A program made the position numbers and the translations under genes. From an uncultured bacterium (lineage in GTDB: Bacteria; Zixibacteria; MSB-5A5; CAIYYT01), in NCBI GenBank assembly GCA_903903945.1, contig CAIVAP010000101.1, positions 1-58,235 of the forward strand: a stretch of DNA of 58,235 bases. Direction: 5' to 3'. The notes beneath the pieces were generated by a model that had not been told where the DNA came from, ran no database searches, and saw nothing but the letters and a program-made list of their open reading frames with translations. Numbering within the stretch: position 1 is the first letter of the stretch; every line of letters begins with the position of its first letter. Below, piece after piece: positions 6,232-28,338 of this stretch.

Positions 6232-7409
6232 TCGGTTCTCCGGTGCAAACGTGATTTGATCGGTTGGTAGGCGCGTACCAGAGCAGTCATGACTTCTCGC
6301 AGTCTGTCGGATTCAACATTGGCTGCAATCCTAATCCAGCCCTCACCTTCCTCGCCAAAGGCAGTGCCGGGCGTAATAAGAATGCCGCGATGGCGCAGCA
6401 GTCCCCGCGCAAAGCTGACCGACAGCCGTCCGCGTCTAAGCTTGACCCAGACAAAACCTGCGCCAAAAGCCGGGTAGAACTCGATGCCGGCACTTTGAAG
6501 CGTCTCGACGATGACATTCATGCGCAAGCCAATCTCTTCTCGGCAGCGAGCAATATGATTCGCCAGTGATTCCGCGGAAGCAAAATAGGGAGCTGCATAA
6601 GTCAGCAGCGGCCCACTGGGAAGCAGACCAAGTGAACGCGCCAACGTCGCCAAGGGGTCGATCATGCGTTTGCGACCGACGATTGCGGTGAGTTTCAGTT
6701 GTGGTGCTGCCAGATTGGTAGAGAAGCTGAACATCTCGATACCGAGGCGGAGCCGTTTACGCGATTGGCAGAACAACGGTGGTCGGAAATTACCGGAATA
6801 CGAAAGGGCGTATGAGGAATCGGCGACGACCAGGATATTCGCCTCGGCAGCCAACCGCTGCAAATGCGAATAGAAGTTTTCGTCGCAGACGGCGCCGGTG
6901 GGATTGTGCGGCGAGGTCAGGAACAGCAAGCGCGGCGACTTGGAAGCGATCCGGTCGAACTGCTCAAGATTCGGCAGGTAGTCATTGCGTTGATAGATCG
7001 GGCAACTGCGCGGTTTGCCTTCAAAGAGCAACACCAGTTTGCGGTAGGCATCGTAGCCGGGATCAGGAAGAAGGCAAATCGTTCCCGCGTCAACAAAGTG
7101 CGCCGCCGTCAAGAGCAGCGCGGCACGGATTCCCGGTACAAGCAGAATCTCCTGCGTCGGATCAATTTCGATTTGATATTCGCGCGCGAGGTATTCGGCA
7201 AACGTCTTGGCAATGGTAGTCCCGTCGGAGGGACTAACAGACGTCTGCGCAGCAAGGGGCACATGGATGGCATATTTACCGAGATCGACAATCTCTTTGC
7301 CCCGGCGTTCCAAAGTCTTACACAATCCCTGTAGTTCGCTCAGGAACGGCGCGGGCAATTGCTGAATTCGTTCCGCCGCGCTGACCACCACGCGCTTAGT
7401 GATCTTCAT
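6228..7409 (-). CDS. Class I/II aminotransferase-fold protein lacking the canonical PLP-lysine
   Basis: SPHNPTGAV and ADSSY motifs fit fold-type I aminotransferases. Where SxSK..G.R.G is expected, the sequence reads FSFSTNLAAPQLKLTAIVG. Confidence 0.7.
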   Translation of the reverse strand: MKITKRVVVSAAERIQQLPAPFLSELQGLCKTLERRGKEIVDLGKYAIHVPLAAQTSVSPSDGTTIAKTFAEYLAREYQIEIDPTQEILLVPGIRAALLLTAAHFVDAGTICLLPDPGYDAYRKLVLLFEGKPRSCPIYQRNDYLPNLEQFDRIASKSPRLLFLTSPHNPTGAVCDENFYSHLQRLAAEANILVVADSSYALSYSGNFRPPLFCQSRKRLRLGIEMFSFSTNLAAPQLKLTAIVGRKRMIDPLATLARSLGLLPSGPLLTYAAPYFASAESLANHIARCREEIGLRMNVIVETLQSAGIEFYPAFGAGFVWVKLRRGRLSVSFARGLLRHRGILITPGTAFGEEGEGWIRIAANVESDRLREVMTALVRAYQPIKSRLHRRTD

Positions 7410-8095
7410 CAGTTCCCTCTGGGAGGATGGAATTCCGATTCATCTTCGCCAAAGATCTCGTCATCGTCGGCAAAAGCGCCTTCCTCGTACATCAGAGAGA
7501 CATCGGTGAGCACACGCGAGAGATAAATTGTCTTGGCCAGCTGTTCAGCCATCTCCACGCGGAAGAAAGCCTCCATTAGGTTTGATCCAAACGACATAAT
7601 ACCGTGGTTCTCGAGCAAGAACGTATGATAGCCGAGGACCAGATTTCCCAAGCGATCGGCCAAGTCCTGCGTGCCGGGTTCGGCATAGGTTATGAAAGGT
7701 ATCTCACCGAAATTGGCGCGCCCTTCCGGAAGCTCGGCGACATCAAGCATAACGCCACCAAGTGCAAACGCGGTCGCATATGAAGGATGCGCATGCACGG
7801 TAGCCTGGAAGTCCTCGCGGCGTTTGTAACCGTGCAAATGCAGAAGACATTCGGACGATGGACATTGCCGGCGATCAACCGGCAAACCAGATGCATCGAT
7901 CAGCACGATGTCGTCCGGTTGCAGCATGCCCTTGCATCCGCCCTTTGGCGTAATCAAGATCTGTCCGTCAGAAGCCCGACAGGAAAGATTCCCCTGTGTT
8001 CCGACAATTAACCCTTTTTCATAAAGCAACTTACCGACCTGGCAAAGCTGCTCCCTTAGAACTCCGTCTTTGATTGACAATACACTTTCCTCCAA
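7409..8095 (-). CDS. Class II aldolase/adducin family protein
   Basis: GTQGNLSCR, PSSE, VHAHP and LLENHGIMSFG motifs, with an acidic C-terminal tail. Confidence 0.8.
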   Translation of the reverse strand: MEESVLSIKDGVLREQLCQVGKLLYEKGLIVGTQGNLSCRASDGQILITPKGGCKGMLQPDDIVLIDASGLPVDRRQCPSSECLLHLHGYKRREDFQATVHAHPSYATAFALGGVMLDVAELPEGRANFGEIPFITYAEPGTQDLADRLGNLVLGYHTFLLENHGIMSFGSNLMEAFFRVEMAEQLAKTIYLSRVLTDVSLMYEEGAFADDDEIFGEDESEFHPPRGN

Positions 8096-8893: not shown

Positions 8894-11221
8894 ATGCAGG
8901 GATACGCCAAGAAAACACTAACCGAAAACGCGTTGCGAGTATTGGAGCGCCGCTATCTGGCCAAGGACGCGGAGGGGCAGATAATCGAAACGCCCGAGCA
9001 ATTGTTCCGGCGTGTCGCCGGCGCCGTGTCGCTGCCCGATAGAAACTACGGTATCACCGACGAGCAAATCAAGCAGAGTGCTGAGGATTTTTTCCAGATG
9101 GTCGCCAATCTGGAGTTTATGCCCAATTCGCCGACGTTGATGAACGCCGGTCGTCCCTTGGGACAGCTCTCCGCTTGTTTTGTTTTGCCGGTCGGCGACT
9201 CGATGGAACAGATTTTTGAGACTATTAAACATGCGGCGCTGATTCACAAATCAGGCGGTGGCACCGGTTTTTCATTCTCACGCCTGCGTCCGCGCAATTC
9301 GGTAGTGGCGTCCACCTCCGGCGTGGCATCGGGGCCGGTGTCGTTTATGCGGGTCTTTAATGCCGCAACCGAGGCCGTCAAGCAAGGGGGTACCAGGCGC
9401 GGCGCCAATATGGGTATCCTGCGAGTGGATCATCCCGATATCGATGAATTCGTTTCCTGCAAAGACGACGTCACTCAAATCACCAATTTCAATATCTCGA
9501 TCGCCATTACCGACGAGTTTATGCGCGCGGTAAAGGAGAACCGGCATTATGCGCTCATCAATCCGCGTACCGGCAAAGAGTATCTCGTCAACGGCGAAGT
9601 GATCACCAAACATGCGCCGACGGTGTTTAATAGCATTATCAAACATGCCTGGTCAACCGGCGAGCCGGGGATCATTTTTATCGATCGGATGAATCAGCAG
9701 GCTCCCTGCCCTGATTACGAAGTTATCGAAGCGACTAATCCGTGCGGTGAACAACCGTTGCCGCCGTACGATTCTTGCAATCTTGGTTCAATCAATCTTG
9801 GCGAGATGGTGCTGGATGAGTTCCCTCGCGATTATGATCCTAAACAGAATCCCGAACAGGGTGTAGAGTGGGACAAGCTGGCGCGGTTGGTCAAGAACAC
9901 GGTGCACTTCCTTGATAATATTATCGACGCGAACAAATACCCGATTCCGGAGATCGAAAGCCAGACGTTGAAAAATCGGCGCGTTGGTTTGGGGGTGATG
10001 GGCTGGGCTGATATGTTGGTCAAGCTACGCGTGCCATACAACAGTGAGGCGGCATTCCGGCTCGGTGAAAAAGTGATGGAGTTTATCAACAGCGAAGGGC
10101 ATATCCAATCCAGTGAGTTGGCCAAAACGCGCGGCAAATTCCCCAACTGGGAGCATTCGCGTTTTGCCGCCGAGGGTGTCTCTATGCGCAATGCCACCGT
10201 GACGACTATTGCGCCGACCGGCACGATTTCGATTATCGCCGGTTGTTCATCGGGGATCGAGCCCTACTATGCCGTGTCATTTGTCCGCAATGTCATGGAC
10301 AACACCAAGCTGGTAGAAGTTAATCCTCTGTTTGAGAAGATCGCGAAGCAGCGCGGGTTCTACAGTCAGGAATTGATGGAGCGCATCGCGTTGGACAACT
10401 CGCTCAAGAATTTCGAGGAAATCCCTGCCGACGTGCGTGACCTCTTTGTGACTGCCGCTGATGTCAGTCCGAAAGAGCATATCCGGATGCAGGCGGTGTT
10501 CCAACGCAATTGTGATTCGTCGGTATCAAAGACGATCAACATGGATAATTCCGCTACCGAACAGGATGTCCATGACGCCTATTGGTATGCCTATGAGCTC
10601 GGTTGCAAGGGTGTGACCATTTATCGTGACGGTTCGCGTCCGATGCAAGTATTATCAACCGGCAAGACCGGCGCCCAACCGGCAAAACCGGAAGCGACGC
10701 CACAACTGGAACTGATACCCGAACCACCCAAAGCCGTGGCGACTCCCATAGAGGCGCCTGCCTTAGCCGGAGCCAAGCAGATCGAGGCGCGGCCGGATGT
10801 GTTGGCCGGTATCACCGAGCGCATCCGCACCGGTTACGGCAATCTGTTCATCACGATCAACAGCAAAGATGATAAGCCGTTTGAAGTCTTCGCGCAGATC
10901 GGCAAATCGGGTTGGTCAACGATGGCCGACACCGAGGCGATCTGCAGGTTGATTTCGCTGGCATTGCGAGCCAGTGTGCCGGTGGAAGCGATTATCGAGC
11001 AGCTTGCCGGTATCGGTGGTGAGTCGCCCCTATTCCAAAACGGCGAGTTGATCAAGTCGATTCCGGATGCCATCAGTATGGTCTTGAAGAAGCATTTCGG
11101 TAACGGCAAGCAGTACCAGCGCCAGTCCAACTACGGCGATGTCTGCCCTGACTGCGGCACCAAGCTTGAGCATGACTCTGGCTGCGTGACGTGCCGAGGG
11201 TGTGGGTATAATAGGTGTTGA
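8894..11221 (+). CDS. nrdJ: Adenosylcobalamin-dependent (class II) ribonucleotide reductase
   Basis: 775 aa. [22 protein letters not shown] active-site region and C-terminal CPDCG...CVTCRGCG redox tail. GGAG-rich RBS upstream. Confidence 0.93.
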
Positions 11222-11386: not shown

Positions 11387-12691
11387 CTAATCTGCAGCTG
11401 TAATAATTCGACCCTTACCGTTCTCTTTGGCAAGCCGTTGGGCGGTCTGAGCCGCAGAAGTTAAGTCTAAGCATGTCTGCGTCGAGGTGGAACGATAAGC
11501 AAGTCCTGCACTCACGCTGACCGGGTAGAAGATGGAATCATCAAAGATGTCTTGTGCTTTAATACATAGCAATTCGCGGAGTATACTGGAGCAGGTCTTG
11601 GCAATCTCCTCTCTGGTTTTTCCCCTCAACAGAACGGAGAACTCGTCTCCGCCATACCTGTATACAGTGTACGGTGCAGCCGCCTTTTCGGCCACCTTCG
11701 CAATCTGTTTCAAAACTTCATCTCCCTGCAAGTGCTCACCAGGTTTAGCATTGAAACTCTTGAAATCGTCGCAATCAAAGAACATTTCCGCAACAATTAT
11801 ATCGATTGGTGACTCGAATATTAATCCGCGATCGATATCGTATTGGCCCCTATTACTGAGTCCCGTGAGATCATCCTTGCGCTGGAAGTCTACGACGCCA
11901 GCGGCGGAGAGCCGCTGCTGAACAGCATGATAGCGGCAATTGCAGATTTTGTTCTTGCAGGTATCGCAAACGTCCGGGTAACGCGTCCAGACTTCTTTCC
12001 CGAGATCGAGAACCTCATTTGGATCACCGAGGTTCGGCAGGAGATTCGCGAGTCCACAAATGCAGGCAAATACGTCGGCAATCTCGTTCTTGACATTGTT
12101 CGGGTAAAACGGTCTCAACCTAATGGCCTCAGACAACTCAGTTAGTTCTTCGTAAGTCTTTAAGAAAGCATAAGCAATTAATCGATCGGGGGTTGGGTTC
12201 CCTTCGCCGCCATAGAGCCCTGCAATCCCTTTTTGCCTTTGGCTGTAGATTCTGTCGAACAGAGCCTGCCAATTAGCGATCGTGACCGGCTGTCTCGATC
12301 GACCGGCAGAAGCCAGTTCAGCCAACATGGAGGAATTTAGTTCCTTCTTAATGACACCTGAACAATTGCACACCGTCTGATTGCAGAAAGGGCAGATACC
12401 TGGAAACTTGTTCCAGATCAGAGCACTGACATTTCCCAATTCCAGGCTTCTCACTAGTCCACAATACCACGCGAAGAGCTTTGGCAGCCATTTCGTTCGA
12501 CACTCGTTGTATTCGCGTGCCTTGATCGCTGACTTCTGCAGATTCAGGAGAGTCTCGTATAGACGGCCGAGAATCTGAAGAGGGCTGCGTTCGTGATTCT
12601 GAGAGAAATAGTATATGCGCTCAAATGTGGATACCCAGGTATCAAGCGTGAGGTCCTTTCCCTGAACTTCTGAAATGGTGGTATTCGTCAT
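11387..12691 (-). CDS. Tandem MazG-like NTP-pyrophosphohydrolase repeats, each ending in a CxxCx4CxC knuckle, fused to a C-terminal GGDEF domain
   Basis: Repeat 1 spans residues ~14-110 and ends WNKFPGICPFCNQTVCNC. Repeat 2 spans ~135-252, carries EELTE...EIAD and ends WTRYPDVCDTCKNKICNC. The GGDEF domain spans ~270-434 (LTGLSNR, FFDCDDFK, RYGGDEF). Confidence 0.75.
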   Translation of the reverse strand: MTNTTISEVQGKDLTLDTWVSTFERIYYFSQNHERSPLQILGRLYETLLNLQKSAIKAREYNECRTKWLPKLFAWYCGLVRSLELGNVSALIWNKFPGICPFCNQTVCNCSGVIKKELNSSMLAELASAGRSRQPVTIANWQALFDRIYSQRQKGIAGLYGGEGNPTPDRLIAYAFLKTYEELTELSEAIRLRPFYPNNVKNEIADVFACICGLANLLPNLGDPNEVLDLGKEVWTRYPDVCDTCKNKICNCRYHAVQQRLSAAGVVDFQRKDDLTGLSNRGQYDIDRGLIFESPIDIIVAEMFFDCDDFKSFNAKPGEHLQGDEVLKQIAKVAEKAAAPYTVYRYGGDEFSVLLRGKTREEIAKTCSSILRELLCIKAQDIFDDSIFYPVSVSAGLAYRSTSTQTCLDLTSAAQTAQRLAKENGKGRIITAAD

Positions 12692-12694
12692 AAT

Positions 12695-13468
12695 TTACTC
12701 AGGCCACTCGAACAGATTGGGATTCCTATGCGCAGTTGAAGAACCCGGCTTTCCGAGAATTGAACCCACCGCATTTCGCACCCGAGCAGTGACGCTCGAT
12801 GTGGACAGCGAAGCATCAATTGAAATGATGGTTCCCAATTCGGGTCGCTGGCTCGCCACGAGTTTCAAATAGCGGTCTCTTATCTTTCTGAGTACGTCCT
12901 CATCTTCGTATAGATCACGCGTCCACCGAGTCTGTCGCATCCGATTTCCGGCATGTTCAACAGGAACATCAAGATAAATAGTCAAATCCGGAATAGGAGC
13001 AAACCGGTTCATCTCGATAAGCCACTTTTCATCAACGGAAAGACCCTGATAAACAAGAGTAGAAAGGAAGTAACGATCACAAATTACTATCCTATTGCTG
13101 CGAAGATTCGGGATTACTTCAGTAGCAAGGTGATCCATACGATCAGCTGCATAAAGCAGTGCGAGTGAATAGGGATCCAAATCGCTAGGAGGTGCTGCCT
13201 GTTCGGACCCAGACTCATGGTAAACACCCGAAGCACCCTTCAGCCGACGAGCGAGCGCCAATCTAATCAACAGACCAGCGGGCCCATTGCTTGGCTCATG
13301 CGTAAAATAGACGCGATACTTCTGTGCCCTCAACCACGAAGTGAGCTTCTCGCCTTGGGTTGTTGAACCACAACCGTCTATTCCCTCTAAGACTAGAAAA
13401 AGAGGGCCAAGAGACTGACCGCGAGACTCGTTATTCTCTGCGTCCGCTTGAAACTGCGTCATAGACAT
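12695..13468 (-). CDS. Thymidylate kinase-family homologue with the Walker-A lysine replaced (GIDGCGSTT)
   Basis: LVLEGIDGCGSTTQ, THEPS, LLYAADR, ICDRYFLSTLVYQG and an Arg-rich lid match the Tmk layout. The codon at 13364-13366 is TCA (Ser) where the P-loop Lys is expected. Confidence 0.75.
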   Translation of the reverse strand: MSMTQFQADAENNESRGQSLGPLFLVLEGIDGCGSTTQGEKLTSWLRAQKYRVYFTHEPSNGPAGLLIRLALARRLKGASGVYHESGSEQAAPPSDLDPYSLALLYAADRMDHLATEVIPNLRSNRIVICDRYFLSTLVYQGLSVDEKWLIEMNRFAPIPDLTIYLDVPVEHAGNRMRQTRWTRDLYEDEDVLRKIRDRYLKLVASQRPELGTIISIDASLSTSSVTARVRNAVGSILGKPGSSTAHRNPNLFEWPE

Positions 13469-13736
13469 CCATTAGGTCCTGCGAAGAGAATCCTATCTTT
13501 CGCGCGACCCTGCTTATGAAGGCCTGCCGCTCCGAGGGGGGCAAGTAGACTGGATCAATCGATTCAATCTCTTCTCCGCGCAGAGCAGAGATTGCCTCAC
13601 AAATGCCCTCAGGGTTATCTCGAATTGACTTCGCCAACCTTTCCCATTTGGTGGCTACTTGTAGGATGTCCTTCACTTGAGTTCTCATCGACGACCCGAA
13701 TCCGCTCTCTCGTTGGCAGTTCGACTTCATTTCCAT
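13431..13736 (-). CDS. Hypothetical small protein (first gene of the three-gene operon; start uncertain)
   Basis: 101-aa ORF overlapping the Tmk-like start by 38 nt. No recognisable family and no clear RBS at the first ATG. Confidence 0.4.
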   Translation of the reverse strand: MEMKSNCQRESGFGSSMRTQVKDILQVATKWERLAKSIRDNPEGICEAISALRGEEIESIDPVYLPPSERQAFISRVARKIGFSSQDLMDVYDAVSSGRRE

Positions 13737-13880
13737 TGCAGTTCGTTACCAACTAAACTACTTTTGTGGGAATTTGGTCACTAATTAAACAAATGTCAAG
13801 CATTTAGTTCCTCAGACCGAATTCTCATCCACCTTGATACGTTTCAACACACCTATTCATGTGCTCGCACACACCCTGCA

Positions 13881-14433
13881 CCTCACCCAGCGGGTGAGTT
13901 CCACGTCTATGACAGCAGAATGTGCGGTGCGATAACCGTCGATGGCAACCGAGTTCGGATTCCCAGCACTATTCAGCACGTCGGTTGAATGCAAAGCCCA
14001 CCCGCTGGGTGGGTTACTGGCTGGCGGTCACGCCAGTCCCGTAGGTCGGCGTTCCGAGTCCCATGCTATCACTGTCACTCCGATTTCAACCACATCCACG
14101 TCAATCCAACCACCCACGCTTCTACCACCACGGGACGAGAAACCCGGCATACATTTGATTTTGTGGTCGAAACATGTCGGGTTTCTCACTCCGTGCCAAT
14201 GCCAAGGGATTCCATGTTTTCCACGGTTTAGCACGACCAGCGGATTCCACGATCAGACCACCGTTCGGAACACCGACCTACGGCAACAGCCTGGATTCCC
14301 GCCGAAGTCTACCCCGTGCTTTGACACGGGGCGGGAATGACAGGTTCTTGTTCGCGACTTTGTACCCCACCCAGAGCCCTGCGTCGGGTGGGTTCTTCTT
14401 TGCTGGCTGTACCTTGTGTCTGGCTACTTTGTA
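13881..14433. repeat. Composite hairpin-rich repeat, copy 1 (full: module A 13881-14020, module B 14021-14342, module C ~14356-14433)
   Basis: Module A has inverted termini CCTCACCCAGCGGGTGAGTT / AACCCACCCGCTGGGTGGGTTAC. Module B has 19-nt inverted arms at 14039-14057 and 14265-14283, and an inner 14-bp stem at 14137-14150/14174-14187. It aligns to the copies at 14434, 16217 and 17258. Confidence 0.85.
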
Positions 14434-14718
14434 CCTCACCCAGCGGGTGAGTTCCACGTCTATGACAGCAGAATGTGCGGTGCGATAACCGTCGATAGCA
14501 GCCGATGTTCGGATTTCCGGTATTGTTCAGGGCGTAGATTGAATGCAGAACCCACCCGCTGGGTGGGTTACTGCCTGGCGGTCACGAGGTCCTGTAGGTC
14601 GGCGTTCCTGCTATCACTGTCACTCCGATTTCAACCACATGCGCGCTGACGCCGCCACCCACGTTTCCATCACCATGGGACGAGAAACCCGACATACATT
14701 TGATTTTGTGGTCGAAAC
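14434..14718. repeat. Composite repeat, copy 2 (module A plus the 5' half of module B; similarity stops 6 nt from the stop codon of the next gene)
   Basis: Near-identical to 13881-14165 except for small indels (for example an 8-nt difference at gttcc[gagtcccat]gctatc). Similarity ends after gtggtcgaaac at 14718. Confidence 0.85.
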
Positions 14719-14723
14719 TTGGG

Positions 14724-16082
14724 TTAGTCCCTCTTTGATGCTTCAATTGCATCTGCTATCGCGCGGAATACACTATCGAAGCTCGGGCCAACAAACCATT
14801 GCCCGTGTGATCGTACACTTACGCCTGAGACTTGATTGTTCAAGAGGCTTTTGGCTATCTCTCTGCCGATCTGCTCTGTACCGAAGTCATAATGAGGTAT
14901 AGTGGGAATGAAGACCGGTCCAAGTCGGACGTCCGAATGCTCGGCTATAGCGGTCAACTCCTCATTATGAATATGAATTATTGAGTGATATCTATTGTCA
15001 TTCTGTGCGAACAACATGGAGTGAATAATCCAGTGCGGTATAGCCTCGCTAGATGGACGCATTGAGGAGTCACCAAAGTAAAGGTATCCCTCGTCTTCTG
15101 TGACGATGGGAGTATCCGAGTATACCTTCAGTCTATCTTTGTAAGTGTTGGAAGCTGTAATCAACATGATTGGTTTTTGATTGCAGATCATATATGCGCT
15201 CAGGACCATATGCGTAAACGATATTGTGGCTCCTTCTCTTATGAGCCTGGCCGAGAAGCTCTTGACTTCCTCCATCTTTGCAAACACACTGTCAATGTCC
15301 TTTCGATTCACGAAGGTTGGAAATGCTCCTTGGTGGCGGATGGTTGGCGGATCATATGAGTATCTCTCCCGGTCGCTTTCGGAAGGATGCGGAAACCTCT
15401 CCTGAAGCAGATTCGCCTTCAAGAAGTGTTCTTTATTCTCTTCGGCCAAAGAGGCGTCATAGTCTTCAAATATGTCTCGGATCGACAAAAGCGCAACTCT
15501 GGTCTTGTCAAGCCTGTTGTATACGTTGCGTATCGTGAGATACAGCTGCTTTGGAGAATCGACAATGCAGTTGGCTAGGTAGTCATAGATTGTTATTCTT
15601 CTCGTAACCTGCTGACCGTAAAATATCCTGAATTTCCTATTGCCCCAATCTCTAGATTCAAAGTCCTCTAGATACTTGCAAATAAGCAGCAGCCATTCCT
15701 CATCCTCTTTCCAGGCCATGGCTTTGTCTAGGGCAGTCATAGCTGTTATAGTAGTCAGTGCCCCTCTTAGACTTCGCTTCTTGCTAAGCCGATCAATGAG
15801 AAAGCCCTTTACGTTGATGGTCCTGCCCCTCAACTCCTCATTCTCTTCGTTCGCCCTTCTGTCAGAGGTGGTGTAGAAAACCAAAGCATTTCCTAAAAGC
15901 CCGCCTATAGTCAGCAGAGTCGTCACCGCCGGCTCATAGCCGGGTTTGCTGCCCCACCAAGCCGAAGACAGAACGAGGACAAGAGTCAGGCCTGACGCAC
16001 GGATGAGATAGCCCTTTTTAGAACCCCAGAATTCAATAGTTGACACCGTTCCCTCCAATATGATATTCCTCTCGTTGACCAA
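14724..16082 (-). CDS. Membrane-anchored protein (2 predicted N-terminal TM helices) with a C-terminal class II aldolase/adducin-like domain
   Basis: TM-like segments at residues ~25-43 and ~51-71. The C-terminus has PSSE (343-346), HIH (370-372) and RSHGQWFVG (H426), which align to the PSSE / HxH / NHG motifs of the bona fide aldolase at 7409-8095. The start may instead be GTG at 16046, preceded by GGAGGG. Confidence 0.65.
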   Translation of the reverse strand: MVNERNIILEGTVSTIEFWGSKKGYLIRASGLTLVLVLSSAWWGSKPGYEPAVTTLLTIGGLLGNALVFYTTSDRRANEENEELRGRTINVKGFLIDRLSKKRSLRGALTTITAMTALDKAMAWKEDEEWLLLICKYLEDFESRDWGNRKFRIFYGQQVTRRITIYDYLANCIVDSPKQLYLTIRNVYNRLDKTRVALLSIRDIFEDYDASLAEENKEHFLKANLLQERFPHPSESDRERYSYDPPTIRHQGAFPTFVNRKDIDSVFAKMEEVKSFSARLIREGATISFTHMVLSAYMICNQKPIMLITASNTYKDRLKVYSDTPIVTEDEGYLYFGDSSMRPSSEAIPHWIIHSMLFAQNDNRYHSIIHIHNEELTAIAEHSDVRLGPVFIPTIPHYDFGTEQIGREIAKSLLNNQVSGVSVRSHGQWFVGPSFDSVFRAIADAIEASKRD

Positions 16083-16133
16083 TGCGATAGAAGTTCATCT
16101 ATTATGCATTTGTTGTCAACGATTTTCGGCAAT

Positions 16134-16670
16134 CTTCGTACTTTGTACCCCACCCAGAGCCTTGCGTCGGGTGGGTTCTTCTTTGCTGGCTGTACCTTGT
16201 GTCTGGCTACTTTGTACCTCACCCAGCGGGTGAGTTTCTATAACTATAGCCGCAGAACGTACAGTGTGATAGCTGTCGATAGCAGCCGATGTTCAGATTT
16301 GCGGCATTGTTCAGCGCGTCGATTGAGTGCAAAGCCCACCCGCTGGGTGGGTTACTGGCCAGTCCCGTAGGTCGGCGTTCCGAGTCCCATGCTATCACTG
16401 TCACTCCGATTTCAACCACATGCGCGCTGACGCCGCCACCCACGTTTCCATCACCACGGGACGAGAAACCCGACATACATTTGATTTCGTGGTCGAAACA
16501 TGTCGGGTTTCTCACTCCGTGCCAATGCCGAGGGATTCCATGTCTTCCACGCTTATGTACGACCAGGGAATTGCACGATCAGACCACCGTTCGGAACACC
16601 GACCTACGACAACAGTCTGGATTCCCGCCGAAGTCTGTCCAGCGCTTTGACACGGGGCGGGAATGACACC
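16134..16670. repeat. Composite repeat, copy 3 (module C 16134-16216, module A 16217-16358, module B 16359-16670)
   Basis: Aligns to copy 1 over A, B and C, with a 12-nt deletion after gggttactgg. It is followed by a solitary REP (AACCCACCCGCTGGGTGGGTT) at 16690-16710. Confidence 0.85.
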
Positions 16671-16840
16671 CCTTGTGCACGGCTGCGAGAACCCACCCGC
16701 TGGGTGGGTTACCGTGCATTGCCAAAGCTTTTTCCCTCCGGCCTTTTTCACAGAAGCTAAATTCCTTTGCAACCTTCGGAGCGGATTGCGTATAAGAGCA
16801 TATGTAGACCTATATTGACCATAACCGAAAGGACAACACA

Positions 16841-17152
16841 ATGAAATTCCTGGTGAAATTCTCGTTTGCGAATGACGCAGGAAACGACGCTCTGAGCGAT
16901 CCTCAATTCGGATCAAAAATGAAGCAGCTTCTGACCGACATTAAAGCTGAGAGTGCGTATTTCACGACCGTGAACGGGCAGCGGGGCGCTTACCTCGTGG
17001 TAAACATGGACGACGCCTCACAAATACCGGCCATTGCCGAGCCGTTGTTTCTTTGGCTGCATGCGGACCTTGAATTTATCCCGGTAATGCTTCCGCAGGA
17101 TCTTGAGAAAGGTGGTCCCGCGATTGCTGCCGCAGTCAAGAAGTGGGCATAA
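16841..17152 (+). CDS. Small alpha+beta protein (DUF3303/GYD-like topology, tentative)
   Basis: 103 aa. MKFLVKFSF...GAYLVVNMDDASQIPAIAEPLFLWLHADLEFIPVMLPQDL resembles dimeric alpha/beta-barrel small proteins. It has its own terminator downstream. Confidence 0.5.
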   Translation: MKFLVKFSFANDAGNDALSDPQFGSKMKQLLTDIKAESAYFTTVNGQRGAYLVVNMDDASQIPAIAEPLFLWLHADLEFIPVMLPQDLEKGGPAIAAAVKKWA

Positions 17153-17184
17153 GTATCTCTGGCACTAACCAATAGTTAGTAAAT

Positions 17185-17219
17185 AGGCCGTCCTTGATTG
17201 AGGGCGGCCTTTGTCTTTC
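17185..17219 (+). terminator. Rho-independent terminator after 16841-17152
   Basis: AGGCCGTCC ttgattga GGGCGGCCT: 9-bp stem with one G.U pair, followed by TTGTCTTTC. Confidence 0.6.
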
Positions 17220-17257
17220 GGGAAATTCCGTCCCATCAGCCGGTAACCCACTGTGTA

Positions 17258-17398
17258 CCTCACCCAGCGGGTGAGTTTCATGACTATTGCCGCAGAATGT
17301 ACAGTGAGATAGCTGTCGATTGCAGCCGATGTTCAGACATCAGGTATTATTCAACACGTCGGTTGAATACAAAACCCACCCGCTGGGTGGGTTACTGG
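17258..17398. repeat. Composite repeat, copy 4 (module A only, REPIN-like)
   Basis: cctcacccagcgggtgagtttc...aaaacccacccgctgggtgggttactgg, with an internal hairpin ATTCAAC acgtcg GTTGAAT. Confidence 0.8.
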
Positions 17399-17451
17399 AT
17401 TACCGAATGTCGTTGGGGAGCGCTCGATTCGATGGCGCACGCCGTGCGCCG

Positions 17452-26985: not shown

Positions 26986-27585
26986 ATGAAGCAGAATAAA
27001 TGCTTATTGTATTCAGCAATTGTGATTGCTCTTATGAATGGATTTACACTCAAGGCTGCAAATGGTCAGAGTGACTTTAGGAAATCAAGTTGGGGAATGG
27101 ATTCGTCACAAATAGCAACAGCAGAGGGAAAGAAACCTGAATATCAGGACAAGAAAGGTTCAATTCAATATCTTGGATATTCAGATCAGATAGCTGGGCT
27201 TGACTGCAATGTCATCTACATTCTTGCTTTCGATCAATTTGTACGCTCTCAATACAGCATTTCTGAAGAACATACAAATAACACTGAGTACTTATCGGAT
27301 TATGACAAATTGAAAGAGGCTCTCGCAAGCAAGTACGGCAAACCCAACAGCGATGACATCTACTGGAAGAATGATTTGTACAGAAGCGATCCTTCAGAAT
27401 GGGGAATGGCCGTCGCTATTGGTCACATGGTGAAGTATACGAGATGGGAATTACCACGCACGTCAATTATCATATTTCTCACCGGTGATAACTTCAAAAT
27501 AAATCTTGGAATAGAGTATTCGAGCAAGGAATTGGATGCACTCGAGGAAAAGGTGAAGAAAGAACAAGAAGCATCAAAATTCTAG
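26986..27585 (+). CDS. Hypothetical secreted protein
   Basis: ATG at 26986 is preceded by AAGGGAGAG. Signal peptide MKQNKCLLYSAIVIALMNGFTLKA. The coding sequence is AT-rich. Confidence 0.5.
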   Translation: MKQNKCLLYSAIVIALMNGFTLKAANGQSDFRKSSWGMDSSQIATAEGKKPEYQDKKGSIQYLGYSDQIAGLDCNVIYILAFDQFVRSQYSISEEHTNNTEYLSDYDKLKEALASKYGKPNSDDIYWKNDLYRSDPSEWGMAVAIGHMVKYTRWELPRTSIIIFLTGDNFKINLGIEYSSKELDALEEKVKKEQEASKF

Positions 27586-27603
27586 CACCTTCAAGGAGAA
27601 AAT

Positions 27604-28338
27604 ATGGGCAAAATAGGTTATGGATACGGTAGTGAATGGCACCTGCTCAGGCATCTTGGCTATCATCGAGAAGATTTGTCGCGGAAAACCTTGAAAGTAA
27701 CCGGCGGCAACTCGATTGAGTGGTTAGATTTTGGGTTCTCCAAAAGAGATGCTCCTCGGAGAGATGACAAAGAGTTCTTGGGGCTCGAATTTATTGAAGA
27801 CGAGCAGGTTCAAGAAAAATGGAAATCATTTTGGCCGCAAACCGGCAACGCACAAAATTGGGACGCAGTTGGCAGAATCCATTATGGTGATCGTGATGAA
27901 TGGCTTTTGGTTGAAGCAAAAGGTCATATTGGCGAGCTTAAGAGCAAGTGCGGCGCAGCAAACCCAAAAAGCAAGCAAAGAATCTATTCGGCACTGGAAA
28001 AAGCAAGACAGGCTTTTGGCAATCAGTCCAGACCTATTGAATATTGGCTCGAACCATATTACCAATATGCCAATCGATTAGCCGTCCTGCATTTCCTAAT
28101 GAAAGAGTGTGTCCCGTCAGTTGACGCCCGTTTGTTGTTCATTTACTTTTACGGCGAAGACAGAAAAGATCTTGTATGTCCAAAAGACGAGCAAGGTTGG
28201 TTGCCAAGTATTCAAGAAATGAAGGATCGGTTAGGTTTTGACAGAAGCTGTGAATTAGCCGAGCGGGTTCATGATCTTTTCTTGCCTGTGAATCCTGTTG
28301 GGGTTGGAGAACGTTGCAGCGCAACAGCACAACGTTAG
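27604..28338 (+). CDS. Hypothetical protein with PD-(D/E)xK nuclease-like motifs
   Basis: GSEWHL ... NWDAVGRI ... EWLLVEAKGH gives E / D / ExK spacing compatible with the restriction-endonuclease-like fold. Inference only. Confidence 0.4.
   Translation: MGKIGYGYGSEWHLLRHLGYHREDLSRKTLKVTGGNSIEWLDFGFSKRDAPRRDDKEFLGLEFIEDEQVQEKWKSFWPQTGNAQNWDAVGRIHYGDRDEWLLVEAKGHIGELKSKCGAANPKSKQRIYSALEKARQAFGNQSRPIEYWLEPYYQYANRLAVLHFLMKECVPSVDARLLFIYFYGEDRKDLVCPKDEQGWLPSIQEMKDRLGFDRSCELAERVHDLFLPVNPVGVGERCSATAQR

Follow-up and report, generated by a model that had tools for sequence, protein, structure and literature searches.

A conserved three-gene operon joining a lysine-less thymidylate kinase homologue to a tandem MazG-like/GGDEF fusion protein, and the wider family of its putative sensor module

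On the minus strand of a 58,235-nucleotide (nt) stretch of DNA from an uncultured Zixibacteria bacterium (contig CAIVAP010000101.1; the whole stretch is called the window below), three genes follow each other so closely that one has to ask whether they work together and, if they do, at what. They are an open reading frame (ORF) called at 101 residues for a small conserved protein (13431..13736), a gene for a 257-residue protein of the thymidylate kinase (Tmk) family with a lysine-less P-loop (12695..13468; PF02223, TIGR00041), and a gene for a 434-residue fusion in which a tandem MazG-like/zinc-knuckle module is followed by a GGDEF domain (11387..12691); coordinates of all operon features refer to the minus strand. 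The first two overlap by 38 nt and a gap of 3 nt separates the second from the third, just as described in a first-pass annotation of the window, which had proposed that the trio is co-expressed and functionally linked. We find the three genes to be one real, conserved operon, and put at roughly one half the probability that it represents the GGDEF-output variant of an undescribed nucleotide-centred family, acting either in conflict (most likely against phages) or in stress signalling.

Full-length relatives of the 434-residue protein are rare, with only 7–8 found among 5.8 billion clusters, at ~49–56% identity. In every close relative with a readable context, the small ORF precedes an overlapping Tmk-like gene, which in turn precedes the module-GGDEF gene; besides the window these loci (L001, L002-5, L012-14 and L176) are metagenomic or from metagenome-assembled genomes (MAGs), and the same arrangement is implied for three further close relatives. 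Gene order and ORF overlap are kept in at least five independent loci at ~50–60% identity. The overlap between the small ORF and the Tmk-like gene measures 38, 53, 17 and 47 nt across loci, and its retention points to translational coupling of both genes. The first-pass annotation had asked whether homologues of the trio ever occur together elsewhere; they do, and this synteny with overlapping ORFs in independent loci bears out the proposal that the three genes are functionally linked and expressed together. One might suppose instead that a housekeeping tmk had fortuitously come to lie beside a spurious small ORF and an ordinary diguanylate cyclase whose N-terminal domain is an orphan, and tmk and GGDEF genes are indeed each common individually, but nothing else favours this explanation, which we regard as extremely improbable: the same gene arrangement, small ORF and overlap recur in relatives, which we take to exclude chance adjacency, the small ORF is itself conserved, and Tmk-like genes recur beside the module with at least four different output domains.

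The small protein has no family in Pfam, NCBIfam, PADLOC or PHROG scans, as had been supposed, but its length of 101 residues is probably overstated, since alignment of the homologues places the probable true start at M17 (13688), giving ~85 residues. Its homologues (31–36% identity) lie 5′ of the Tmk-like gene in L001, L002-5, L006/7, L012-14 and L176, and its motif is DPVYLPPxER.

The tandem module and its exchangeable partners

The N-terminal part of the fusion protein consists of two units, each ending in a cysteine knuckle. Repeat 1 (residues 14-112; 12356..12652) is a degenerate MazG-like helical unit whose knuckle C100-x2-C-x4-C-x-C110 (C100/C103/C108/C110) lies at 12362-12394. Repeat 2 (residues 136-254; 11930..12286) is a MazG-like unit carrying both the acidic motif E181-E182-x2-E185...E203-x2-D206 (EELTE...EIAD; 12074-12151) and a second knuckle, C242-x2-C-x4-C-x-C252 (C242/C245/C250/C252; 11936-11968). 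The identical spacing of the knuckles had been pointed out from the sequence, and we find both to be invariant in the 7–8 closest homologues. Across 95 diverse relatives C100, C103, C110, C242, C245 and C250 are invariant, and conservation reaches at least 90% at E181, E182, E185, E203 and D206; within the module family as a whole the knuckles are of Cys4 or Cys3His type. The acidic metal motif is absent from repeat 1 of the window protein, whereas the first repeat of distant relatives keeps EE...E. When the two repeats were compared with hhalign, using 95 sequences for each, they matched over the whole unit including the knuckle (probability 99.9%, E=1.3e-35), and the N-terminal 265 residues, of which the module makes up ~240, therefore represent a genuine tandem duplication.

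The assignment to MazG depends on how much of the family is considered. With the single sequence, the Pfam MazG model matches residues 179-218 below threshold (E=0.047; 14.4 bits against a cut-off of 22). A profile of eight close N-termini matches the integron iMazG (PDB ID: 2q73) at E=7e-4, and a 23-sequence module profile matches SSO3215 of S. solfataricus (PDB ID: 1vmg) at 4.6e-10 and iMazG at 1.8e-5, followed by YpjD (PDB ID: 2gta; 5.7e-4), 5ie9 (7e-4) and E. coli MazG (PDB ID: 3cra; 0.017). All of the PDB MazG matches of the 23-sequence profile fall on repeat 2, and several relatives of the module pass or approach the Pfam cut-off. Failure of profile searches to support MazG had been named as a way in which the assignment could fall; the family profile upholds it, together with the view of two tandem MazG-type repeats of which only the second keeps the motif. 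An AlphaFold2 (AF2) model of the full protein built with 7 sequences gave a predicted local distance difference test (pLDDT) score below 60 for the N-terminal module and was replaced by a module-only run with the 95-sequence alignment, which yielded a pLDDT of 93.4, a predicted template-modelling score of 0.91, and an all-helical fold with four helices plus a knuckle in each repeat.

Since only repeat 2 carries EExxE...ExxD, the module looks like two MazG units fused into a pseudo-dimer with one predicted active or binding site. In E. coli MazG, an all-alpha NTP pyrophosphohydrolase, two MazG units likewise stand in tandem and catalysis seems likely for one of them only, and repeat 2 aligns to the MazG core (3cra, 1vmg, 2q73) with the motif in register. 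The window module differs from MazG in having a cysteine knuckle in each unit, outside the 74 positions of the Pfam MazG model (PF03819), in the degenerate state of repeat 1 and in being fused to signalling or effector domains.

A helix (residues 252-263 in the AF2 model) links the module to the GGDEF domain (residues 273-427; 11411..11875), which matches PF00990 with 63.6 bits (cut-off 23.8; E=2.5e-17), is modelled with a pLDDT of ~90 and aligns end to end with 5euh (3.3e-12), 6tts, DgcB, WspR and DgcZ. The elements expected of such a domain are present, namely the metal-binding Asp, F-K-x-x-N, H-x-x-G-D, GGDEF and K...R; D306, D308, K311, N314, D324 and K422 do not vary within the family and line up with solved diguanylate cyclases. 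The motif RYGGDEF (residues 345-351; its GGDEF part at 11639-11653) and the segment DCDDFK are intact and do not vary in the closest homologues. Upstream of the GGDEF motif, neither the window protein nor the alignment of its closest homologues shows an RxxD I-site. The intact motifs and the missing I-site agree with what had first been noted. From these residues we predict an active, GTP-specific cyclase free of product inhibition. Sensor-regulated diguanylate cyclases such as PleD, WspR and DgcZ similarly have an intact GGDEF site joined by a helical linker to an N-terminal regulatory module, but the regulator here is a tandem NTP-pyrophosphatase-like unit not previously linked to GGDEF, and RxxD is lacking.

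How far the module extends beyond this small group became apparent only with a sensitive search. A word-based homologue search with the module alone returned just the 8 close GGDEF relatives; an exhaustive hidden Markov model (HMM) search of 1.84 billion representatives gave 784 proteins at E<=1e-3, of which 321 were at <=1e-10. Among the best 150 of these 784 matches, from which all fusion-partner counts are taken, the commonest partner is an unannotated helical C-terminal domain of ~148 residues (35 proteins). GGDEF is present in 28 and an N-terminal cytidine deaminase in 16. Another 18 fall into one BLAST cluster of C-terminal extensions of ~110–450 residues, most of them ~330 residues; when ten were scanned, CHAT was recognised in seven (up to 4.8e-15) and PNP_UDP_1 in two (1.1e-13), the latter extension also matching the CBASS 'PN' effector model. 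Single fusions include a CAP12/Pycsar-type TIR domain (1.2e-35; protein P0256, which matches PADLOC PDC-S35 at 1.6e-44), N-terminal TIR-like domains recognisable from sequence, a class III cyclase and a CARF domain. The remaining class, 39 of the 150, has no flanking extension of at least 70 residues, and some of these sequences are truncated. A constant module joined to swappable TIR, CHAT, PNP, deaminase and cyclase domains is a signature of conflict systems.

Two of these partners deserve separate mention. The helical ~148-residue domain (P0257, P0263, P0266 and others) ends in a conserved hydrophobic segment, is matched by nothing in Pfam or PADLOC and could represent a new effector. The 730-residue protein P0318 has a CARF-like N-terminus (PADLOC CARF6 models, 8e-7), the MazG-like module and this same helical C-terminal domain, an arrangement that hints at a link to cyclic-oligonucleotide signalling.

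The neighbourhoods of module genes bring the Tmk-like protein back into the picture, as a Tmk-like gene is the most recurrent neighbour, found at 16 of 87 loci (~10 of 80 in the module-side sample) against a chance expectation that we estimate at well under 1%. The association of the module with the Tmk family is statistically strong and non-obligatory. It extends over GGDEF, deaminase (L006/7, L018, L097, L122 and others), class III cyclase, TIR (L015) and helical-domain variants, and no Tmk-like neighbour was seen at ~25 loci of the CHAT/PNP-type class. Other neighbours often point towards conflict systems too: RelE/MqsA, ORF6N, ResIII with an N6/N4 methyltransferase and a 918-residue kinase-HD protein at L001; MazE/PIN, HigB/HTH and Metallophos-ORC/CDC6-like-Dam genes at L012; integrases and the insertion sequence IS21 at L002; and ParE with a group II intron at L177. 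Effector swapping and toxin-antitoxin, restriction-modification-like, integrase and insertion-sequence neighbours are generic marks of conflict systems, though some of the loci are in housekeeping surroundings. The ~920–950-residue Pkinase and HD-associated protein, which lies directly 5′ of the L001 trio (L001 6104-8860), has homologues near module genes in L098, L111 and L149 and may be a further accessory component.

A lysine-less branch of the thymidylate kinase family

The second gene of the operon encodes an evident member of the Tmk family (142.2 bits against PF02223, cut-off 27, E=1.9e-41; 146.9 bits against TIGR00041, cut-off 83.25), whose nearest PDB match is the Thermus enzyme (PDB ID: 5x7j; 1.8e-22). 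Its P-loop reads LVLEGIDGCGSTTQ; within it, residues G29-T37 (GIDGCGSTT; 13358..13384) place Ser35 at the position of the canonical lysine and do not fit the lysine-type pattern GxxxxGK[ST]. The replacement of the lysine codon by TCA (13364-13366), first reported from the sequence, is confirmed. A sequencing error had been considered as its cause, to be recognised by orthologues that carry the lysine, and is ruled out: all close homologues lack it too and have Ser or Thr in its place. The DRY box (D131 R132 Y133; 13070..13078) and the arginine-rich LID (R176 MRQT R181 WT R184; 12917..12943) are, as had been noted, retained and conserved; among 26 members of the subfamily the residues of the deoxythymidine monophosphate (dTMP) site and of catalysis, R110, D131-R132-Y133, Y140-Q141 and R176, are invariant and R181 nearly so. 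Compared with canonical Tmk (TIGR00041; Thermus 5x7j, Aquifex 2pbr), with which it shares full-length homology, the dTMP pocket, the DRY box and the LID, the window protein differs in the change of the P-loop lysine to serine, in a conserved insertion of ~25 residues after the EPxxGP segment, in an LxLF-type C-terminal tail and in being encoded in an operon of three genes, one of them for a MazG-GGDEF protein. No second Tmk match was found within the 58-kb window.

The tail (NPNLFEWPE; 12698..12724) is a variant of the pattern [DEQ]LxL[FL], examples of which include LTLFSWPE, ELSLF, ELTLF, ELTLL and QLxLL. In the closest Tmk subclade this pattern tracks with linkage to the module: in its strict form it occurs in 7 of 14 module-linked and 4 of 81 unlinked Tmk-like proteins, the NLFEW variant of the window (in NLFEWPE) falling outside the strict pattern and hence going uncounted. 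The tail is a possible docking peptide.

GTDB species genomes were scanned with seeds EGIDG[SA]G[ST]T or LL[YF]AADRxDH, giving at least 580 Tmk relatives, the best 80 of which (L016-L095) were examined. The lysine position is occupied by T, S, I, V, L, N, C or G in 76 of these 80 loci, a proportion that does not measure the frequency of lysine loss among Tmk homologues overall, one of the seeds being itself a lysine-less motif. The lysine-less loci in this set include Myxococcus (M. vastator, L039), Corallococcus (L038), Anaeromyxobacter (L050), Chloroflexia, Peptococcaceae (L058), Gemmatimonadota and archaea (Methanofastidiosia, L023). A conserved CinA-like gene follows the lysine-less tmk homologue in Myxococcota, spo0A lies nearby in a Peptococcaceae MAG and ABCE1 is the neighbour in an archaeon, and a module neighbour was present at only 1 of the best 80 loci (Longimicrobium, L018). 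On this comparison, loss of the lysine is an old, conserved trait of a clade and neither a sequencing error nor decay specific to the system; since the clade includes copies in core-genome contexts, its members may be active kinases. The clade, apparently core in Myxococcota, Chloroflexota, Bacillota and archaea, poses the testable question of how, or whether, dTMP is phosphorylated by these proteins.

These observations bear directly on the suggestion of a pseudokinase, in which the Tmk-like protein would have no catalytic activity and would serve the MazG-GGDEF protein purely as a nucleotide-binding sensor subunit. Such a role would suit the Ser or Thr found at the lysine position in all system-linked close homologues, the conserved ~25-residue insertion and the system-enriched tail with its suggestion of protein-protein docking. 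However, hundreds of Tmk homologues that are solitary and apparently core have lost the lysine as well, which speaks for a different but working P-loop and against decay, the remaining catalytic residues are all strongly conserved, and some module-linked Tmk-like genes (L109, L125, L144) keep the lysine, so that we consider the pseudokinase unlikely. Of the original description, the Tmk-fold homology thus stands, and the pseudokinase is not established, the loss of the lysine being clade-wide. In L109 (1589-2854) and L125 (1517-2746) the lysine-containing Tmk-like protein has an extra C-terminal domain of ~200 residues without assigned family, and these fusions are encoded directly 3′ of deaminase-module genes.

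What the operon might do

A sensor joined to a swappable effector is a known plan; the sensor module in this case is uncharacterised. That no described system has this combination of genes, as the first-pass annotation had it, is borne out both by PADLOC and by the literature. Neither the 434-residue fusion nor the small ORF has a match in PADLOC-DB v2 at E<=1; the Tmk-like protein matches PDC-M51B (1.9e-15) and VakA (7e-7), and there was no system of which all components were matched. Full-text searches for the gene combination, for PDC-S35, PDC-M51 or VakA and for lysine-less Tmk gave no relevant description, and neither MazG nor Tmk is mentioned in those Aravind-group papers on conflict systems that were checked. 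One close relation is with PDC-S35, a predicted single-gene system in PADLOC in which a MazG-like unit is joined to an effector, and which the TIR relative P0256 matches over repeat 2 and the TIR domain (1.6e-44). Among the relatives, those with TIR are the only ones to be placed in a PADLOC candidate, those with PNP matching generic effector models. The window operon differs from it in having GGDEF in place of TIR, two extra genes and a tandem module instead of one MazG-like unit; we know of no validation of PDC-S35. PDC-M51, through the match of its component B, places Tmk/dNK-like proteins in predicted defence operons already, but the match is confined to the C-terminal half of the Tmk-like protein and no other window protein matches any component.

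A further parallel is with defence by nucleotide depletion through dCTP deaminase or AvcD, in which, as Tal and colleagues and Hsueh and colleagues are said to have described in 2022, a kinase-like P-loop domain is fused to a cytidine deaminase. The theme of pyrimidine nucleotides is common to both, as some relatives of the window operon pair a Tmk-like P-loop protein with a cytidine-deaminase protein. The differences are that the kinase-like part here has a gene of its own, from the Tmk family, that a MazG-like tandem module is interposed and that the output in the window is GGDEF. One relative is matched by the PADLOC dCTPase model, but weakly (9.8e-5) and in its deaminase part alone.

If the trio is indeed a GGDEF-output system for conflict or stress signalling, one can imagine how it would operate. 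The MazG-like site would bind, and perhaps slowly hydrolyse, a (deoxy)nucleoside triphosphate that changes in level or identity when the cell is infected or under replication stress. The Tmk-like protein might bind or convert a thymidylate-like nucleotide and so feed, buffer or gate the signal, possibly while docked through its conserved LxLF-type tail, and the product of the small overlapping ORF could be a translationally coupled regulator or adaptor. A ligand-dependent rearrangement or oligomerisation of the module would then bring two GGDEF domains together, and the output would be cyclic di-GMP (c-di-GMP) or, alternatively, the consumption of GTP, by a domain with the GTP-type residues N314 and D324 and no I-site feedback. 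We give even odds to this scheme in outline, in which the module senses or hydrolyses (deoxy)nucleoside triphosphates, the Tmk-like and small proteins modulate or supply the signal and c-di-GMP is the output.

What speaks for a nucleotide-centred conflict system, a logic already proposed for the three genes, is the fusion of the module to TIR, CHAT, PNP, deaminase, cyclase and CARF domains and the toxin-antitoxin, restriction-modification-like and integrase genes around it. Several observations weigh against it. Around 80% of module proteins have no Tmk-like neighbour, including the more distant GGDEF fusion L177; lysine-less Tmk homologues are mostly solitary and in core-genome contexts, and the Tmk-like protein of the operon could simply be an active dTMP kinase; some trio loci lie amid housekeeping genes (nrdJ in the window, dprA and obg in L176); and GGDEF and class III cyclases serve in signalling and are not typical killing effectors. 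The module itself gave an equivocal result in fold comparison: Foldseek ranked E. coli MazG first in the PDB but non-significantly (E=0.55; TM-score 0.25), and found phage NTP-PPase/MazG-like proteins in BFVD at probability 0.99–1.0 and TM-score 0.4–0.6 but E>=0.08, which is consistent with MazG and not decisive, so that the sequence profiles carry the assignment.

Alternatively, the operon may be concerned with the physiology of nucleotide pools, with a working, non-canonical dTMP kinase, a MazG-like sensor or house-cleaning domain for (deoxy)nucleoside triphosphates and a GGDEF domain that ties dNTP or replication status to the control of lifestyle by c-di-GMP. The lysine-less clade is large and in conserved core contexts, the TIGR00041 score is well above its cut-off with dTMP pocket, DRY box and LID conserved, the trios of the window and L176 sit among housekeeping genes, the GGDEF and class III cyclase outputs are those of signalling, and deaminase, MazG-like protein and Tmk together resemble a dCTP-to-dTTP salvage route, by analogy with T4-type pyrimidine metabolism. 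Defence-type fusions would then reflect the reuse of a generic nucleotide-sensor domain. However, fusions to TIR (of CAP12/Pycsar type), CHAT, PNP and CARF are hard to explain metabolically, the distribution is patchy and suggestive of horizontal transfer (7–8 close homologues in 5.8 billion clusters, a lower-GC island in the window), and the neighbours in L001, L002, L012 and L177 are those of toxin-antitoxin, restriction-modification-like and mobile loci, and we hold this physiological role to be a real but lesser possibility. An origin of the module in phages, or an anti-defence function, was also considered and rejected, the module not being found in IMG/VR viral contigs in pattern-seeded scans.

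Within the conflict interpretation, a bolder and decidedly speculative proposal is that the module represents an immune sensor of a new class, one that detects (deoxy)nucleotides made or perturbed by phages, for which the lysine-less Tmk would make, trap or present a thymidylate-derived ligand, the GGDEF variant converting infection into c-di-GMP. If true, antiviral immunity and c-di-GMP signalling would be connected in a way not known before, and the lysine-less Tmk clade would form a branch of an essential enzyme family that is functionally set apart and unstudied. The broader interpretation, should it hold, would itself mean a widespread sensor-effector family (~800 cluster representatives at 50% identity) built on a constant fused MazG pseudo-dimer with zinc knuckles, a new sensing principle in bacterial immunity, namely NTP-pyrophosphatase-like nucleotide recognition, with a new partner from the Tmk family, and GGDEF and class III cyclase variants that tie the sensing of nucleotide pools or infection to second-messenger signalling.

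Surroundings of the operon in the window

The operon lies among housekeeping genes, with nrdJ, panB and ApbE as neighbours. The ORF for an nrdJ-like class II ribonucleotide reductase (8894-11221, plus strand) converges on it, and a functional link between the two was entertained and rejected, as nrdJ is near no other locus; the adjacency is probably incidental. Scans of the window for Rfam families (at gathering thresholds) and for tRNAs gave nothing, neither a c-di-GMP or B12 riboswitch nor a tRNA integration site. HIP1 sites number 2 against 2.4 expected, an absence of enrichment that lends no support to a cyanobacterial origin.

The operon had also been placed in a repeat-bracketed, AT-richer segment, which holds in part. 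The GC content is modestly lower, at 0.46–0.50 over 11.3–13.4 kb and 14.6–16.1 kb against 0.52–0.57 in nrdJ, but the repeats are upstream only and bracket a neighbouring 452-residue ORF, not the operon. They form a cluster of palindromic repeats at 13873-17406, resembling miniature inverted-repeat transposable elements or repetitive extragenic palindromes, and a GC-rich block of them separates the operon from that ORF. The core CCCACCCGCTGGGTGGGTTAC occurs in 8 copies, all at 13997-17395, where none is expected by chance; the cluster also holds families of 148 nt and 113 nt and a 300-nt pair (14017-14316 and 16343-16642; 88% identical). No palindromic repeats were found between the operon and nrdJ or elsewhere in the 58-kb window.

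The 452-residue ORF (14724-16082, minus strand) lies in the lowest-GC stretch of this region (~0.46); its predicted product is hydrophobic at the N-terminus and carries a class II aldolase/adducin-like domain (2.1e-12) at the C-terminus. Neither PADLOC nor PHROG gave a match for it, and it may have been acquired separately; the window has a canonical gene for a class II aldolase at 7409-8095. The lowest-GC kilobase of the window as a whole is at 27001-28000 (0.42), with strong positive GC and AT skew.

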